A stretch of DNA of 40,506 nucleotides, taken from Saprospiraceae bacterium (GTDB taxonomy: Bacteria > Bacteroidota > Bacteroidia > Chitinophagales > Saprospiraceae). The translations under genes and the position numbers were made by a program. Positions 2,930-39,456 of the stretch are shown here, piece after piece (position 1 is the stretch's first letter; every line of letters starts with the position of its first letter). Under the pieces are notes generated by a model. It was not told the origin of the DNA and did no database searches. It saw only the letters and a list, made by a program, of their open reading frames with translations. The stretch covers positions 1 to 40,506 of the forward strand of contig DAIPYV010000001.1 of assembly GCA_036782555.1 (NCBI GenBank), in the 5' to 3' direction.

Positions 2930-3136
2930 TCAAAGATTGATTTTACGGTTTTTGCGAATTTCTTCTAACAAGACATCTAATTTTTCACTCTGACGATTAT
3001 TAGAGTCTAAAATTGTCTGTCTGTATTTTTTTAGTCTAGCTCTATTGACTAATAGATTATACAACAAATAAAAAGATGACAGCATACTAAACCAAGGGTT
3101 AATATACTCCCAAAGAGTATAAATACTCTGAATCAT
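2930..3136 (-). CDS. Small single-pass membrane protein, holin candidate
   Basis: 68 aa. INPWFSMLSSFYLLYNLLV followed by a highly charged C-terminus. Sits 4 nt downstream of the endolysin gene. Confidence 0.35.
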   Translation of the reverse strand: MIQSIYTLWEYINPWFSMLSSFYLLYNLLVNRARLKKYRQTILDSNNRQSEKLDVLLEEIRKNRKINL

Positions 3137-3139
3137 AGA

Positions 3140-4537
3140 CTATTTCTTTCTTAATATTCGAGAAAAGAAGTTGCCATTTTTAGGGTTTTTAAGAATCGGT
3201 TTGATTGGTCTGCGATTATTAATATCAGCGATCATTGCAAATAACTTGTTGCTCATATCTGGTAATAGATTTTTAATATCAGTTTCCGATTGCTTAGTAA
3301 TTGCAACATAAGTTCTTTGCATAACAAAAATCAAATAAGTTAAAATTAAAGAAGCGGAATATAAAACAAAAGAAATTAAGTTTTGAGTAGCACTAGGGTC
3401 TAGCTCTAAACCTACCATGTTGCCCACAGATATAACCATTGTACCTATTATACTAGCATAATCTCCTACTTGATACAATATTGCTTGGATAGACGCAGCC
3501 ATTGCTAACATACCAGTCCAAGTCATAGTCCAAGTCTTAGACTGCAAAGGGGTTTTAGTTTTAGGTAGCTCTAAATGTGGGTTAGCTATTACTATTGGAT
3601 TGTCTAAAATATCAGCATTGCGGATTCCATTTAGAGCATCTTCTATCATGACTTGAACTTCCTCAGGAGTTTTATAGCCTTTTTCTTCAGCTATTTTTTT
3701 GATTTCTTCTTCAGTTGGAAGAATTTTAACAGAGATTTGATTAGCTAATTGAGTTTCTAATTCAGCTATTCTATTTTCTGAATTTCGATGGTCTTGCATA
3801 GCTTGTTCACCAGACCAAATAATTAAGTGGTCTGCGTCATCACCATACACCGCAGCTGATAATTGATCTTTTCGGGGTTGGTCAAATATTGTAGATGACT
3901 GTATTTTTTTAATTAATTTTTCTTTATCCATATTATTTTGACTGTTATTTACAATAGTTTGGGAGCTTAATTGACGATTATTTAAAATTTGATTGACTTT
4001 TTCAACGATAAATTCAACACCTAAAGAGCCGCTACACTCTGTGCCTGTATTAACTATGTTACGATGTCTAACTGCAATACCTACGCGTTGACCTTTGTAT
4101 TGATTAATTAAGTTTGTAGGGTCTTGATTCCTCTGATCGTAACTATAAGGTAATATTAACCTATCCCATCCTTGCTTACGACATAAATCAACGCAAAGTT
4201 CAATAGAATTAGCTACACACTGATCAGACGGAATACGTCTTGTACCGTTTGATAAAAATTCACCGCCTGAATGTTCTATACCTATAAAATAGCCATTTTC
4301 CCAAAAAGGGTCGCTGTCTCCAGCATGATAAGCTACTTTATTTACAGCTACGTATTGATGTACTTGACCTGGCAGATCACCAACTCCAAAGTGGGCTGAA
4401 GCCTTTCTGTTAGGGTCATTAAAAGTTGAATCTGCAGAATACAAATTGCCTACAATCCAATGAAAACAGATACCAGCTTTATAAGAGTCTTTAATCGACC
4501 AATTGCTTGGTGAAATGGTTTTTTGTATAATTTTCAT
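3140..4537 (-). CDS. N-acetylmuramoyl-L-alanine amidase (Amidase_2/PGRP-type) endolysin with a C-terminal three-helix membrane region
   Basis: The N-terminal ~185 aa carry CFHWIVG, AHFGVG, AYHAG and GIEHSG motifs of T7-lysozyme/PGRP amidases. Residues ~333-406 form three hydrophobic helices. Confidence 0.85.
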   Translation of the reverse strand: MKIIQKTISPSNWSIKDSYKAGICFHWIVGNLYSADSTFNDPNRKASAHFGVGDLPGQVHQYVAVNKVAYHAGDSDPFWENGYFIGIEHSGGEFLSNGTRRIPSDQCVANSIELCVDLCRKQGWDRLILPYSYDQRNQDPTNLINQYKGQRVGIAVRHRNIVNTGTECSGSLGVEFIVEKVNQILNNRQLSSQTIVNNSQNNMDKEKLIKKIQSSTIFDQPRKDQLSAAVYGDDADHLIIWSGEQAMQDHRNSENRIAELETQLANQISVKILPTEEEIKKIAEEKGYKTPEEVQVMIEDALNGIRNADILDNPIVIANPHLELPKTKTPLQSKTWTMTWTGMLAMAASIQAILYQVGDYASIIGTMVISVGNMVGLELDPSATQNLISFVLYSASLILTYLIFVMQRTYVAITKQSETDIKNLLPDMSNKLFAMIADINNRRPIKPILKNPKNGNFFSRILRKK

Positions 4538-4558
4538 AGTCTGTTAATTTAAAAATAG

Positions 4559-4789
4559 TTATTTAATTTGATCAGTTGGAATGTCTCTAGTAAATTCATC
4601 AATAATTTTATTCATGCTAGAATCATTTTCATCTTGCATTCCAAAAGTTAGAGTGTGTTCATTGATTACGACTGTCACGTCAAAACCTTCGTTAGAGGGT
4701 GATGTAGTTATTTCAGTCTTAGTGTAGTTTTTCTCTTCTAAATAAGAGTTTACTGTTTTGATGATGTTTGCATTGTTAGATTTTGACAT
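4559..4789 (-). CDS. Hypothetical acidic protein (76 aa)
   Basis: ORF track; tightly packed between the fibre and endolysin genes. Confidence 0.5.
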   Translation of the reverse strand: MSKSNNANIIKTVNSYLEEKNYTKTEITTSPSNEGFDVTVVINEHTLTFGMQDENDSSMNKIIDEFTRDIPTDQIK

Positions 4790-29622: not shown

Positions 29623-29671
29623 AGATTTATGATTTAACAAAAATCTTATATTCTATTTTCTGTCAAGGATT

Positions 29672-31186: not shown

Positions 31187-32053
31187 TTAATTATTTTGGT
31201 AATATTCTTGAGGAGTATAAAAATCTGACAATTGCTGCCAATGTGAGATACTCTTCCAACCCTGTAATTTCCATTCTGGGAGGTTTTTTTCTTCTTCTTG
31301 ACTCTTGGTATTAGCTACTGCCCAAAAGCTCTTAAAATCATCAATCCAGAAGCGATGAGAGGTAATCAATTGTTCTCGAAAGTTGCGTTTACTCCCTCGC
31401 TCTCTTTTCAACCAAATAAAATAGGCTTCAAGTTCTTTTTCTGTTTTGAAAGTGGTCTCTAACTTTTCAACGATAGTGGCTAAATGCGGTACACCCTGTT
31501 CTTGGGGGCTAAGAGAAAAACTATTAACAAAGAGAGAGAGGAAGTCTGGATAAGCTGGTGAGTCTCGATGTATTTCGCAATTCGCAGAAACAGGTTGAGA
31601 TACAGAATCAGAATTTTGGTTTTTTGTTTCTCTCTCTTCTCTTCTCTCTTCTTCTTTATCTTTGTATATATAATGTTGTGAAAAAACTGTATCACTAGTA
31701 CCCCATTTTTTTGATGACAAGTGACCCAGAATTTTAACTACTGAATCTGAAGCGATTAAGAGGTAATTTTGGGCTGGCAAGCCCTTCTTTTCGATTGTCA
31801 AAATTCCTAATTTTTTAAGAATTTTTTCTGATTCGGTTTGTCTGTAATTTGACAATCCAGTATCTTCCTCAATTAACTCTCTAGAATAGTAAAAACTATC
31901 TCCATTTTGTATTTTTTCGGTCTCAATTAAGTGATTTTCTTTGTTTATGATTGCACCTAAATATACTGCACAATCTAAACCAAAAGTTTTTATAAAATGT
32001 TTGTTAATGGTTAGAAAATTACCTGAACCAATTAAAATGTTATGTGCATTCAT
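31187..32053 (-). CDS. Replication initiation / replisome organiser protein (DnaD- or phage-O-like wHTH N-terminus), putative
   Basis: 288 aa directly upstream of dnaB. The N-terminal ~100 aa (FLTINKHFIKTFGLDCAVYLGAIINK..TGLSNYRQTESEKILKKLGIL) looks like a winged helix. Call rests on position plus pattern. Confidence 0.5.
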   Translation of the reverse strand: MNAHNILIGSGNFLTINKHFIKTFGLDCAVYLGAIINKENHLIETEKIQNGDSFYYSRELIEEDTGLSNYRQTESEKILKKLGILTIEKKGLPAQNYLLIASDSVVKILGHLSSKKWGTSDTVFSQHYIYKDKEEERREERETKNQNSDSVSQPVSANCEIHRDSPAYPDFLSLFVNSFSLSPQEQGVPHLATIVEKLETTFKTEKELEAYFIWLKRERGSKRNFREQLITSHRFWIDDFKSFWAVANTKSQEEEKNLPEWKLQGWKSISHWQQLSDFYTPQEYYQNN

Positions 32054-32220
32054 ATTATATTAATTTCCAATAGTTTAACTTAAAAATATCTGCCAAGCCA
32101 ATTGCACGGCTTTATAATTTTCAATTTTGGGATTTAGTTTGTAAATAGTAGATACTATAAGTCGTAGTTTTTTATACTGTATGAAGCTTATTTTCATATA
32201 TTTTAATTATATAGAGGCAC

Positions 32221-32246
32221 AAAAAAAACCCCCGATTTAACGGGAG
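32221..32246 (-). terminator. Intrinsic terminator T1 (minus strand)
   Basis: On the - strand: CTCCCG-ttaaat-CGGGGG (one G-U pair) followed by T8. Confidence 0.6.
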
Positions 32247-32264
32247 AGAATACAGAACTTGGTT
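32221..32264 (-). ncRNA. Predicted ~44-nt terminated transcript from P1
   Basis: Promoter 32271-32299 and terminator 32221-32246 bracket AACCAAGUUCUGUAUUC plus the hairpin. No ORF. Confidence 0.4.
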
Positions 32265-32368
32265 AATTTAATACTAAAACAAAACTGCAACTTTGTCAAG
32301 TACTTTTTTTAACTAGGTTAGATTTCTCCCTAGTCTTACCAAATACATAACAACCAAGTTCTGTATTC
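32248..32368. repeat. Perfect 17-bp inverted repeat (32248-32264 / 32352-32368) around an 87-bp promoter-bearing segment
   Basis: GAATACAGAACTTGGTT and AACCAAGTTCTGTATTC, checked base by base. Confidence 0.9.
32271..32299 (-). promoter_or_regulatory. Promoter P1, TTGACA-N17-TAGTAT (minus strand)
   Basis: -35 at 32299-32294 and -10 at 32276-32271. The predicted +1 falls on the first base of the left IR arm. Confidence 0.55.
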
Positions 32369-32383
32369 GATAAGAATATTTCG

Positions 32384-32412
32384 ATCTAAAACAACAACTC
32401 ATATTTTGTCAA
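32384..32412 (-). promoter_or_regulatory. Promoter P2 candidate, TTGACA-N17-TTAGAT (minus strand)
   Basis: Consensus -35 at 32412-32407; weak -10. Confidence 0.4.
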
Positions 32413-32441
32413 CTATCCTATTTTTCTGGATAGTTCATAAC

Positions 32442-32482
32442 AAAAAAAGTCACATGAGTAAAACGAGATACTCAATGTGACT
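32442..32482 (-). terminator. Intrinsic terminator T3 (minus strand)
   Basis: 13-bp stem AGTCACAT(t)GAGTA / TACTCATGTGACT (32448-32482) followed by a T-run (A-run 32442-32448 on the + strand). Confidence 0.65.
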
Positions 32483-32524
32483 GTAATACGCTAGTGTGAC
32501 GTAAGTTCTTCCAGGGTAAGAACC
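32442..32524 (-). ncRNA. Predicted ~83-nt terminated transcript from P3
   Basis: Bracketed by promoter 32531-32559 and terminator T3. Contains a second hairpin GTTCTT/AAGAAC. No ORF. Confidence 0.4.
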
Positions 32525-32530
32525 ACCTTA

Positions 32531-32559
32531 GTAATAAAATTTTTCTCTAACCTTGTCAA
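32531..32559 (-). promoter_or_regulatory. Promoter P3, TTGACA-N17-TATTAC (minus strand)
   Basis: -35 at 32559-32554 and -10 at 32536-32531. Confidence 0.5.
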
Positions 32560-32596
32560 TATCTAAAATATAGGTATGAAATATAATGCAAATTAT

Positions 32597-32601
32597 GGAG
32601 G
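32597..32601 (+). promoter_or_regulatory. Shine-Dalgarno GGAGG, 7 nt before ATG 32609
   Basis: One of very few canonical SD sequences I noticed in the window. A TATAAT hexamer lies at 32582-32587. Confidence 0.5.
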
Positions 32602-32608
32602 TCATCTA

Positions 32609-32779
32609 ATGACTAACAACAAAGAAAGGTTTGACCCTATTGTTAAAATGTCAGAGTATATTGAAGCCAGAGCTGACGCCCAAGATAAAGCAGCAGCTAA
32701 AGTAGTTGAGTATCTACACTATCGCATTGAACAAGCCCAAAATACAACTGACACTGACAAGGAGGATAAATCCAAGTAA
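32609..32779 (+). CDS. Hypothetical helical protein (56 aa), first rightward gene
   Basis: The ORF track opens at 32576. ATG 32609 (MTNNKERF) has the GGAGG at proper spacing. Confidence 0.5.
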   Translation: MTNNKERFDPIVKMSEYIEARADAQDKAAAKVVEYLHYRIEQAQNTTDTDKEDKSK

Positions 32780-32786
32780 TGTTTGC

Positions 32787-32815
32787 ACCGTCTATATTAA
32801 ATTATAGGCGGTTTT
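32787..32815 (+). terminator. Intrinsic terminator candidate
   Basis: 10-bp stem ACCGTCTATA/TATAGGCGGT (one G-U pair), loop TTAAAT, then TTTAT. Confidence 0.5.
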
Positions 32816-32836
32816 ATCATCTTAATTAATAATTAC

Positions 32837-32865
32837 TTGCACAAAAATAAAAAGAAATATATAAT
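32837..32865 (+). promoter_or_regulatory. Sigma70-type promoter, cassette type 2 (TTGCAC-N17-TATAAT)
   Basis: cttaattaataattacTTGCACaaaaataaaaagaaataTATAAT; the cassette recurs at 36692 and 37487. Confidence 0.6.
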
Positions 32866-32907
32866 TAATGTAAGAGGAATTTTTAGCCCTCACTTATATA
32901 AAAACAT

Positions 32908-33402
32908 ATGACTAAAACAAAACTAATCTCACTACTTACAATTGGCTTGGCTTTATCTGGCTGTATTTATGCCTTAATGTACAAATCTGAAGTTGTTACC
33001 TCTTCTGTTAACACATCAGCTCAGACAGAAATTAAAACCCCTAAAAAGCCTGATTTTGTTCCTTTGATGAATACACAAGCTACAGAGCCAGCGGTTACAA
33101 GAATTGTTGACGAAAAAACAAATATAATTTCTAGTGTGTCTACTTATGAAAGACCTAAAAAAATTAGCTCTTCAACTGCTAAAAAAGTTTTACCACCGAT
33201 TAAAGTATCCAAAGTACCCCAAAGTCAGAATGATGGAAACTCCCAGCCCCTACCAAAAGTAGAAGCTACTCAAGAATTATCAGAGGCTAAAGGTGGTTTT
33301 GCTATGCCTGAATTACCTGAGACTGAAACTACTAATACTGTTGATATTTGCTCTACTCGGTCACAAAACAACCCTGAGACTGAATTAGAATATTGCATTT
33401 AA
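32908..33402 (+). CDS. Lipoprotein (possible superinfection-exclusion type surface protein)
   Basis: Signal peptide with lipobox: MTKTKLISLLTIGLALSG-C. The mature part is low-complexity and Pro/Ser/Thr/Lys-rich. Confidence 0.65.
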   Translation: MTKTKLISLLTIGLALSGCIYALMYKSEVVTSSVNTSAQTEIKTPKKPDFVPLMNTQATEPAVTRIVDEKTNIISSVSTYERPKKISSSTAKKVLPPIKVSKVPQSQNDGNSQPLPKVEATQELSEAKGGFAMPELPETETTNTVDICSTRSQNNPETELEYCI

Positions 33403-33405
33403 TTC

Positions 33406-33434
33406 TTGACACAAATAAAAAAATATATTATGTA
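33406..33434 (+). promoter_or_regulatory. Promoter candidate TTGACA-N17-TATGTA (degenerate type 2 cassette)
   Basis: cTTGACAcaaataaaaaaatatat aligns with the type 2 cassette with small deletions. Poor -10. Confidence 0.3.
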
Positions 33435-33480
33435 TTGATTGGGTTGTTTAGGCACAACTCCAGTCATAAATAATAGGTTC

Positions 33481-33510
33481 ACCCCGCAGTAATAGGCGGG
33501 GTTAATCTTT
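33481..33510 (+). terminator. GC-rich hairpin, weak terminator candidate
   Basis: ACCCCGC(33481-33487)/GCGGGGT(33496-33502), 8-nt loop. The downstream tract TAATCTTT is T-poor. Confidence 0.3.
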
Positions 33511-33526
33511 GGCTAATAATTATTAT

Positions 33527-33555
33527 TTGACAAAATATGAAATAATGTGTAATTA
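33527..33555 (+). promoter_or_regulatory. TTGACAAAAT-class promoter (TTGACA-N17-TAATTA)
   Basis: TATTATTTGACAAAATAT is identical over 18 nt to 34058-34075. ATG 33566 lies ~10 nt after the -10. Confidence 0.4.
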
Positions 33556-35114: not shown

Positions 35115-35140
35115 ACACCTTTTTTTAAGGGTGTTTTTGT
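35115..35140 (+). terminator. Intrinsic terminator
   Basis: ACACCTTT/AAGGGTGT stem (one G-U pair), T4 loop, followed by TTTTGTTATTTT. Confidence 0.55.
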
Positions 35141-35168
35141 TATTTTAATGATTTTTTTACATTATTTC

Positions 35169-35197
35169 TTGACAAGTTATAAAATATAATTTATTAT
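35169..35197 (+). promoter_or_regulatory. Sigma70-type promoter, cassette type 1 (TTGACA-N17-TATTAT)
   Basis: ttcTTGACAagttataaaatataattTATTAT. Confidence 0.6.
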
Positions 35198-35236
35198 TAA
35201 TATATTGAGTTGAAAAACTTAATTTATTGACAGCTA
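35198..35236 (+). promoter_or_regulatory. Early leader module copy 1: hairpin UUGAGUU-GAAA-AACUUAA plus TTGACAGCTA box
   Basis: taatatattgagttgaaaaacttaatttattgacagcta, directly after the -10. Confidence 0.55.
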
Positions 35237-36671: not shown

Positions 36672-36691
36672 TATATTATTAATAATATTAC

Positions 36692-36720
36692 TTGCACAAA
36701 AATAAAAAGTAATATATAAT
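36692..36720 (+). promoter_or_regulatory. Sigma70-type promoter, cassette type 2 (TTGCAC-N17-TATAAT)
   Basis: attacTTGCACaaaaataaaaagtaataTATAAT. Confidence 0.6.
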
Positions 36721-36759
36721 TAATATGTTAAATTGCAAAACTTAATTGATTGACAGCTA
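36721..36759 (+). promoter_or_regulatory. Early leader module copy 2 (hairpin with one A-C mismatch, GCAA loop) plus TTGACAGCTA
   Basis: taatatgttaaattgcaaaacttaattgattgacagcta. Confidence 0.5.
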
Positions 36760-36788
36760 GAAACCCTAAAAACTAACAATTATTATTT

Positions 36789-37459: not shown

Positions 37460-37486
37460 ATCCTAATAATCTTAATTAATAATTAC

Positions 37487-37515
37487 TTTCACAAAAATAA
37501 AAAGTAATATATAAT
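37487..37515 (+). promoter_or_regulatory. Sigma70-type promoter, cassette type 2 variant (TTTCAC-N17-TATAAT)
   Basis: cttaattaataattacTTTCACaaaaataaaaagtaataTATAAT. Confidence 0.55.
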
Positions 37516-37554
37516 TAATATATTGAGTTGCAAAACTTAATATATTGACAGCTA
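37516..37554 (+). promoter_or_regulatory. Early leader module copy 3: hairpin UUGAGUU-GCAA-AACUUAA plus TTGACAGCTA
   Basis: taatatattgagttgcaaaacttaatatattgacagcta. Confidence 0.55.
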
Positions 37555-37641
37555 CACAGGTTACTCGGTCATCCTACTTAAAACCGAGACTAACCACTCC
37601 GACTAGCCTAAAGCTACGGTTGAGTGCCTATAAAAAACAAA

Positions 37642-39068: not shown

Positions 39069-39074
39069 CATATA

Positions 39075-39098
39075 CCACCCCTTCGGGGGTGGTTTTTT
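39075..39098 (+). terminator. Intrinsic terminator
   Basis: CCACCCC-ttcg-GGGGTGG followed by TTTTTT. Confidence 0.75.
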
Positions 39099-39114
39099 GT
39101 TGTTTAATTTAAAC

Positions 39115-39143
39115 TTGACAGAAATAAAAAAAGAATATATAAA
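39115..39143 (+). promoter_or_regulatory. Sigma70-type promoter TTGACA-N17-TATAAA
   Basis: aaacTTGACAgaaataaaaaaagaataTATAAA. Confidence 0.55.
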
Positions 39144-39149
39144 GTAATA

Positions 39150-39390
39150 GTGTAGTTAGCAGAGTTTTCTTTCCGAAAGGAGAGTAAACAAAACTGACTG
39201 CTTAAATCTTAGATCTGATTCAAGTCTAATCTAAGTAATTATTAACCGAATGTTAAATAAGTTAATAATTTGCAAATCTTTTAACATCATCTAACACGCT
39301 TAAACTTGAAATAAGTTAAATGATTATAGCAGAAACTTGAGATTGTATCAATTAGTTATAACACCCTAAGGACGCTTAGGGAGTTTTTTT
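39150..39390 (+). ncRNA. Predicted ~240-nt non-coding transcript
   Basis: Bracketed by promoter 39115-39143 and terminator 39364-39390. The longest ATG ORF is 14 codons. Internal hairpins: UUUCC-GAAA-GGAGA and CUUAGAU..AUCUAAG. Confidence 0.45.
39364..39390 (+). terminator. Intrinsic terminator
   Basis: CCCTAAG-gacg-CTTAGGG followed by AGTTTTTTT. Confidence 0.75.
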
Positions 39391-39456
39391 ATGTCTAATT
39401 ATTAAATATTTCTTGACAAGTTATAAAATATAATTTATAACTTAAGCATGTCTAAT
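39391..39456 (+). repeat. 9-bp direct repeat ATGTCTAAT (39391-39399, 39448-39456) flanking the type 1 promoter cassette
   Basis: Read directly. The second copy is the start of the 310-aa gene. Confidence 0.7.
39413..39441 (+). promoter_or_regulatory. Sigma70-type promoter, cassette type 1 (TTGACA-N17-TATAAC), leaderless geometry
   Basis: Six nt separate the -10 from ATG 39448, so the canonical +1 is the A of the start codon. Confidence 0.6.

Follow-up and report, generated by a model that had tools for sequence, protein, structure and literature searches.

How are the replication genes of a phage transcribed when the promoters ahead of them run into a terminator? The question is raised by positions 32221–32560 of the 40,506-nt stretch analysed here in full length (contig DAIPYV010000001.1 of the Saprospiraceae bacterium assembly GCA_036782555.1; below, the window). 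In this region three minus-strand TTGACA promoters (P3, P2 and P1) and two terminators (t3 and t1) precede a leftward operon with replication genes near its head. Promoter-proximal terminators and structured leaders are classic timing devices of phages. To our knowledge, the worked examples come almost all from a few model phages, and they depend on proteins (N, Q) or on processed RNAs (P4 CI). We assign a probability of about one half to the reading that the region is a terminator-gated, attenuating leader, which acts as the transcriptional control head of the leftward replication-to-lysis operon. We commit to attenuation at t1 as its primary function; promoter activity, termination efficiency, read-through and the roles of the RNA helices are what we infer.

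The minus strand of 31900–32900 was read directly, and all five elements are found exactly where the original prediction had placed them. P3 is TTGACA-N17-TATTAC (32531–32559, TTGACA at 32559–32554). P2 is TTGACA-N17-TTAGAT (32384–32412, TTGACA at 32412–32407) with a predicted start near 32378. P1 is TTGACA-N17-TAGTAT (TTGACA at 32299–32294, TAGTAT at 32276–32271) and is the best consensus promoter of the region (10/12). Terminator t3 has an interrupted stem of 13 bp (32482–32448, T7 at 32447–32441, −14.1 kcal/mol), and t1 consists of CUCCCG-loop-CGGGGG and U8 (32221–32246). P2 has no terminator of its own, and the anatomy is therefore two units, P3–t3 and a compound P2[P1]–t1 in which t1 is common to both promoters, rather than the three promoter-terminator mini-units first proposed. 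P1 is nested within the P2 leader, and the predicted 44-nt P1 RNA ends at the same t1. A permissive search of both strands for hairpins with T-runs gives t1 and t3 as the sole intergenic leftward terminators in 40.5 kb. The units hold no sizeable open reading frame (ORF), as had been claimed. The longest minus-strand ORF in 32221–32560 has at most 29 codons, and the small ORFs (20–29 codons) mostly begin upstream of the predicted transcription starts; none is conserved.

Chance expectation was taken from 300 Markov-simulated genomes. A same-strand triple of TTGACA within 270 bp occurs somewhere in 38 of the 300, so the cluster by itself is not significant. The hexamers gain weight because perfect TTGACA promoters form a family in the co-oriented intergenic gaps of both gene blocks and because the arrangement recurs in relatives. 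The real support for the promoter cluster is its position, its orientation and its conservation in L001 and L002, two close relatives. The −35 hexamer of P2 is overlapped by an operator-like perfect palindrome of 8 bp with a spacer of 9 nt (AACTATCC-N9-GGATAGTT, 32406–32440), which is not kept in L002.

The P2 transcript is predicted to carry a leader of ~158 nt (32221–32378) that folds into a three-way junction followed by t1. The minimum free energy is −51.2 kcal/mol, with a z-score of −6.8. The junction is closed by a long-range helix of 17 bp between X, the 5′ arm (GAAUACAGAACUUGGUU as RNA, 32352–32368), and Z, the 3′ arm (AACCAAGUUCUGUAUUC, 32248–32264), which together make a perfect inverted repeat. 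X and Z are 87 nt apart, their centres are 104 bp apart, and P1 lies within the loop of X:Z. X is located at about +10 to +26 of P2 and Z at +1 to +17 of P1. Z begins at the predicted start of P1 and stops one base short of the t1 hairpin. Within the junction, hairpin A (32311–32335) carries an invariant AGGGAG and hairpin B (32270–32304) coincides with the P1 promoter DNA. In the predicted fold, helix X:Z is coaxial with the 6-bp t1 stem and would resemble a substrate of RNase III. A perfect 17-bp inverted repeat with a loop of at most 150 nt arises in only two of the 300 simulated genomes.

X has a second partner on the same strand. The proximal segment Y (32335–32347) forms an early hairpin in which 32374–32362 pairs with 32347–32335. 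In nascent-length folds, before Z exists, this X:Y hairpin forms with the same −18 kcal/mol in all three sequences (window, L001 and L002). X can pair with two same-strand segments of one leader, and X:Y competes with X:Z. In the folded 44-nt P1 RNA the 5′ 19 nt are unpaired, so that Z is free. Its duplex with X would be a perfect 17-nt helix (−26.6 kcal/mol). X is the only near-perfect target of the P1 RNA in the phage genome, and no further trans target of the P1 seed in the phage rises above shuffled background.

Relatives were found by protein searches with the initiator and DnaB, and they are few. L001 and L002 are close (both metagenomic contigs); L012 and L013–L018 are distant. No DNA match emerged when the region and 24 kb were compared by BLAST with GenBank phages, and identity to known phages is at most 30% for DnaB and at most 44% for the terminase. 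In IMG/VR, JGI metagenomes and GTDB genomes, scans by pattern and by protein yielded chance matches in coding regions and nothing else, and a search with the lipoprotein gave no match besides the query itself. L002 has P3′, t3′, P2′, P1′ and t1′ in the same order as the window. The L001 contig starts inside P2′ and keeps the remainder (P1′, X, Y, Z and t1′). Promoters and hairpins are kept in relatives, which is what the original prediction had asked for: P2, P1 and t1 in both close relatives, P3 and t3 in L002. The t1 stem is invariant in L001 and L002 and its loop varies; the −35 hexamer and the spacer of P1 are invariant as well. The L002 leader folds like that of the window, with a z-score of −6.5. 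Between the window and L002 the leader from P2 to t1 is 76% identical, dnaB 68%, rep 57% and the divergent lipoprotein gene 51%. By these alignments, the P2–t1 leader is the best-conserved DNA of the neighbourhood.

Both pairings of X covary. Compared with L001 and L002, four of the 17 pairs of X:Z are changed on both sides, all by transitions. In the X:Z alignment 98% of the cells are paired, one of 500 shuffles reaches the observed score, and pairing collapses to 33–54% in slid controls. X:Y shows two compensatory and two wobble-compatible changes, and two of its pairs are lost in L001/L002. Changes in X are matched in both Y and Z, as mutually exclusive functional pairings predict. The stem of hairpin B survives a G-C to G.U change in the relatives, and the helix analogous to X:Z in L012 contains a U.G pair. 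Such wobble pairs are better explained by selection on the RNA of this strand than by selection on duplex DNA. L012 and L013 have non-homologous leaders with a long closing stem and a terminator directly before rep (z-scores −3.8 and −7.9). The trait of the lineage is the design and not the sequence.

The first gene of the operon is orf40 (minus strand, 32075–32197, 40 codons), whose product has 44% identity over 39 residues to an ORF of L013. Its ATG lies 24 nt past the U8 of t1, and the L013 counterpart, which sits between the terminator and rep, starts 8 nt past its terminator. The replication initiator gene rep (O-like, minus strand, 31187–32053) follows, and the DnaB helicase gene dnaB (minus strand, 31178–29925) comes directly after rep; both are assigned by PHROG and Pfam matches. 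In L001, L002 and L013 the terminator likewise stands directly before the first gene, and this first gene differs among relatives. The stretch from t1 to the first ATG is too short to hold a promoter. After t1, the sole promoter candidate matches the consensus at 9/12 positions and lies inside orf40. The 168-nt gap that was described after t1 does hold only a weak candidate, but it is not an empty gap, as it contains the conserved orf40 (32197–32075). The leftward block was also described as a single undivided unit of 29 kb. This has to be corrected, because internal TTGACA promoters are present at 29666, 29115 and 28433 (none before 29666). Helix X:Z, hairpin X:Y, the nesting of P1 and the small first gene had all been overlooked in the original prediction, and with them the picture becomes that of a compound structured leader.

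The core of the earlier claim holds in every relative found: host-type promoters run into intrinsic terminators just before the first gene, and no convincing promoter intervenes. As t1 is followed by no convincing promoter, transcription of orf40, rep and dnaB most likely depends entirely on polymerases that get past t1. With t1 and t3 the only intergenic leftward terminators and the layout conserved, a read-through checkpoint is a fair reading, and an attenuation or antitermination checkpoint is plausible from the sequence. The end of orf40 also holds one copy (32092–32104) of a perfect 13-nt inverted repeat (CAATTGGCTTGGC); the other copy (32939–32951) is in the signal peptide of the divergent lipoprotein gene. 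This may be chance in coding sequence.

The mechanism that we favour would proceed as follows. At infection, host sigma-70-type promoters would fire. Transcripts from P3 would halt at t3 and give a free RNA of ~83 nt. Transcripts from P2 would fold the local 5′ hairpin X:Y first and, once Z is made, would refold into the three-way junction closed by X:Z one nucleotide before t1. The majority of polymerases would end at the U8 of t1, leaving a compact RNA of ~158 nt, and orf40, rep and dnaB would obtain their mRNA from the read-through fraction alone. P1, inside the junction, would add transcripts that lack X, namely the 44-nt RNA with free Z and then t1. In this way t1 could hold the output of often-firing promoters to a low or timed supply of replication proteins. 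We take the closed junction as an RNA-level element with a two-state fold, either 5′ protective or a processing site for a double-strand nuclease. It would give the read-through mRNA a nuclease-resistant 5′ end or an RNase III-type processing site. The nested P1 RNA is a possible competitor for X, and its free Z might pair with X of nascent P2 leaders.

Several observations weigh against this mechanism. P2 and P3 have poor −10 hexamers and do not pass the consensus scanner, which in the window accepts only P1 (10/12) and t1. The earlier description as strong promoters is therefore not supported. In L001 and L002, P1 too has a poorer −10 hexamer (TAGTGT) than in the window. The covariation is based on effectively two independent lineages, and the leaders of L012 and L013 have no nested promoter. 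The pairing probability of t1 exceeds 0.95 with or without X blocked, and the orf40 start codon is not sequestered by the leader. Similar units of promoter, short RNA and terminator occur elsewhere (33406–33502 and 39115–39381). Since such units and tandem promoter modules recur in the rightward block, stacked transcription units are a general habit of this genome, and the stacking may be the phage's general style rather than a dedicated switch. The unit at 32221–32412 is set apart by its conservation, its covarying alternative pairings and its nested promoter.

Two candidate couplings between leader and output were tried and rejected. For a thermodynamic antiterminator, the only plausible competitor of t1 is a GGGAGA/UCUCCC pairing, which costs 13 kcal/mol. 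Blocking X leaves t1 folded, and no thermodynamic coupling therefore exists between t1 and the X:Y/X:Z switch. For start-codon sequestration of the IsrK type, the region around the orf40 start is just as accessible in read-through RNA from P2 as in that from P1. A riboswitch or other known cis-regulatory leader was also rejected, as no Rfam family matches at threshold. Searches of the window, L002, L012 and L013 at the gathering score gave no Rfam match, and below it only unrelated families with E-values up to 10; a tRNA/tmRNA search gave nothing. The perfect 17-bp closing helix would in any case probably be too stable for the ligand-tuned P1 stem of a riboswitch.

The regulation could instead come from a protein or from an RNA acting on X. 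In factor-dependent antitermination of the lambda Q or N type, an early rightward product would modify RNA polymerase at or near P1/P2, let it ignore t1 (and t3) and so turn on the replication and late genes. The layout suits such a switch, with promoters leading into terminators right before the operon, no convincing promoter between, and a conserved and structured leader. The predicted 44-nt and 158-nt RNAs would be short terminated transcripts upstream of an operon, as in Q-type control, and the rightward block of small early-type uncharacterised genes could hide a regulator. To this extent the analogy drawn earlier to lambda pR′-tR′ and pL-nutL-tL1 stands. It does not extend to the working parts. 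The protein scan covered flanking and rightward ORFs (20 with PHROGs and Pfam, 7 more with one library; they are mostly uncharacterised and include only a minor part of the leftward structural block), and no Q, N or other antiterminator family and no repressor, recombinase or sigma family was found among them; a distant or novel Q protein may escape such a scan. No boxA-like match with up to 2–4 mismatches occurs in 32190–32620, where a boxB hairpin was not searched for. No conserved −10-like pause element is found in the initial transcribed regions, and a TATTCT at +1 of P2 and +13 of P1 occurs in the window alone and is not kept in L001/L002. There are no more terminators downstream, so processivity would not be required. 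The first gene after t1 differs among relatives, so there is no conserved N-like first gene, and replication genes, not late ones, come first. We judge antitermination by a factor unlikely. In a same-strand antisense loop, which we judge just as unlikely, the 44-nt P1 RNA would pair through its free Z with X on nascent P2 leaders and choose between the X:Y and X:Z fates. The perfect and stable duplex, the uniqueness of X as target and the covariation of both pairings agree with such a loop, and the P4 CI RNA with seqA-seqC and Gifsy-1 IsrK are precedents (PMC4825925). Its output is not visible, however, as blocking X alters neither t1 folding nor access to the start codon. The cis copy of Z competes on each P2 transcript, the leaders of L012 and L013 have no nested promoter, and no Rfam family is matched at gathering score. 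It is improbable that the locus is a self-targeting circuit in which the 44-nt RNA of the nested promoter competes for X, flips X:Y and X:Z and decides termination, processing or stability of the replication mRNA. In a lytic-type phage, such a circuit would be P4-type RNA immunity in a same-strand form driven by a promoter.

The remaining explanations detach the RNAs or the DNA from control of the operon at t1. The P3 RNA, the P1 RNA and the terminated P2 leader could be stand-alone sRNAs (small RNAs) that act in trans, for example against host mRNAs, with the operon living off the leak of the terminator. The self-contained P3 unit with its strong terminator, fast-changing sequence and kept build is consistent with this, and so are the similar ORF-less units elsewhere in the genome. 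No phage target exceeds shuffled background, and trans action leaves unexplained both the covariation of two alternative pairings and the conservation of the leader over the genes; we find it quite unlikely for the region as a whole. At the DNA level, the 17-bp repeats could be paired operators just past the starts of P2 and P1, or the ends of a small invertible promoter segment. Their position at these starts with centres 104 bp apart would suit operators, the perfect arms flank P1 with 87 bp between them as in an inverton, and co-varying arms are also what a shared protein site or recombination ends would produce. For inversion, 87 bp would be a very short segment. X covaries as well with Y, a third and imperfect partner, by way of G.U pairs; hairpin B too has changed through G.U, and the equivalent helix of L012 has a U.G. 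No recombinase or repressor family is among the ORFs scanned, and all three assemblies (window, L001 and L002) have the same orientation. A DNA element of this kind is very unlikely. The proposal of origin or primer transcripts, in which the short RNAs would serve as primers or activators of replication next to the initiator gene, draws on the adjoining O-like initiator and DnaB genes and on AT-rich DNA after t1. This proposal is not supported. No iterons or ordered repeats are present in or near the initiator gene, the AT-rich stretch is the conserved coding ORF orf40, and the skew profile merely follows gene orientation. We regard it as extremely unlikely.

A terminator-gated leader of the kind we favour can be compared with five known arrangements. 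The T7 early region has tandem host-polymerase promoters A1, A2 and A3, followed by the RNase III site R0.3. It is similar in having three tandem promoters ~110–150 bp apart at the head of the operon and a long double-stranded RNA before the first gene. It differs in having no terminators between promoters and first gene, and its RNase III site is a local hairpin and not a promoter-enclosing helix. In pT181 and pIP501 the rep leader is attenuated by opposite-strand countertranscripts, which decide between preemptor and terminator. The terminator in the leader of the initiator gene and a small RNA complementary to the 5′ part of the leader are shared features. Here, in contrast, the small RNA is on the same strand and no overlap of preemptor and terminator is seen. 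The 6S transcript of lambda pR′-tR′ under Q likewise starts at a constitutive host-type promoter and is a short terminated RNA before a long operon that needs read-through. Neither a Q homologue nor a conserved pause element was found here, the operon opens with replication genes, two promoters (one nested in the leader of the other) share one terminator, and the long-range helix covaries.

Complementary same-strand segments combined with premature termination are known from the P4 immunity leader (CI RNA, seqA/seqB/seqC), P1 c4 and N15 CA (PMC4825925). In these, too, a single leader ahead of replication genes holds the segments, one of which can pair with two others. The P4 regulator is cut from its leader by processing, whereas the candidate regulator here has its own promoter. 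There is no sequence or Rfam similarity to P4, no lysogeny genes are shown, and folding predicts no effect on termination. The Gifsy-1 IsrK promoter gives a short terminated sRNA and a read-through mRNA of the same sequence, and the short form can pair with the long one (PMC4825925). The same pair of products, a short terminated RNA and a read-through mRNA carrying its sequence, is predicted here. IsrK opens a sequestered ribosome-binding site; the first start codon here is not sequestered, and the pairing partner lies upstream, in the transcript of a different promoter. For the complementary segments, the P4 CI/seqA-seqC leader and IsrK seem closest in logic, and for tandem promoters followed by a double-stranded element the T7 early region seems closest in layout. 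The locus fits none of these families and is a variation on known phage leader and attenuator control.

What the locus would add is a non-coding leader that is better conserved than the replication genes, in a phage lineage without close sequenced relatives, together with two mutually exclusive pairings, each maintained by compensatory change, and a promoter buried in the junction. If functional, the locus would be a compact and portable RNA-only module (tandem promoters, switchable leader and leaky terminator) that might set the amount of replication proteins made, and it would offer a clear case in which to test how same-strand complementary RNAs regulate their own operon. If it performs constitutive attenuation only, it is an ordinary, though tidy, example.

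Upstream of the compound unit, the P3 RNA (~83 nt, minus strand, 32441–32524) is predicted to consist of a 5′ hairpin (32524–32504), a linker and t3, with a fold of −24.3 kcal/mol and a z-score of −3.7. The stand-alone sRNA alternative suits this self-contained unit with its own terminator well, as the original prediction had allowed. At the P3 position L002 has the promoter TTGACA-17-TATTCT. Its RNA is non-homologous in sequence and has the same build (5′ hairpin, linker and terminator) in the same position; nucleotide identity of the P3 unit between the window and L002 is 49%. No trans target of the P3 linker in the phage exceeds shuffled background.

Two ORF-less units resemble the P3 arrangement on the rightward side. 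In 33406–33532, a TTGACA promoter at 33406 would give an RNA of ~65 nt (fold z-score −4.0), and the next promoter is at 33527. This RNA has a 5′ hairpin and the terminator ACCCCGC/GCGGGGT (33481–33502), a build like that of the P3 RNA. The 380-bp ORF-less gap at 39069–39447 contains a terminator (39074–39093), a TTGACA promoter at 39115, a structured RNA of ~240 nt (z-score −3.6), a second terminator (39364–39381 and T7) and a promoter at 39413; it may be the gene of a non-coding RNA. A promoter module (TAATAATTACTTGCACAAAAATAAAAAGTAATATATAATTAAT) is repeated at 36680–36760, 37478–37555, 35140–35236 and 32822–32868. Three copies are followed by the near-palindrome TTGAGTTGCAAAACTTAA and by ATTGACAGCTA. 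The arrangement resembles a common operator placed right behind a TATAAT promoter.

The relatives show further features of their own. L012 (1480–1560) and L013 (2295–2350) share a conserved, hairpin-rich non-coding element (tagccctt..aaggct ... atcctgaggggtkgg.taaagc) in divergent intergenic regions; the window lacks it, and it matches no Rfam family. In L013, an IS200/IS605 element (TnpA and TnpB, 3101–4734, also at 1–120 of L014) lies directly upstream of the leader promoter of the replication operon, and the same insertion is seen in contigs from separate samples. Near its contig end, L002 has at 40–100 a fragment like the 5′ half of a tRNA gene (the reverse complement of cgtgctctaccaactgagctacatgctgca), flanked by two copies of aagtaactcttttattgct.

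At gene starts throughout the window, Shine-Dalgarno sequences are almost absent and the upstream regions are A/T-rich. Bacteroidetes-type promoters (TAnnTTTG), also tried, are not enriched despite this near absence. The exception to the lack of Shine-Dalgarno sequences is a 56-aa gene at 32609–32779 (GGAGG), which looks moron-like because it has its own terminator (32787–32812) and is absent from L002. The contig ends (1–60 and 40431–40506) have a unit of ~60 nt in common (gctcactagtgtagggaatgggtttttgtat...aaccctcacaa.tcttgatctacctaagctca). This unit represents a terminal repeat or a circular overlap, unless it is a short tandem repeat at the junction. Where the gene blocks converge, a bidirectional terminator-like hairpin with T-runs on both strands (2775–2808) lies inside the called ORF 2608–2928, which may be mis-called or shorter.

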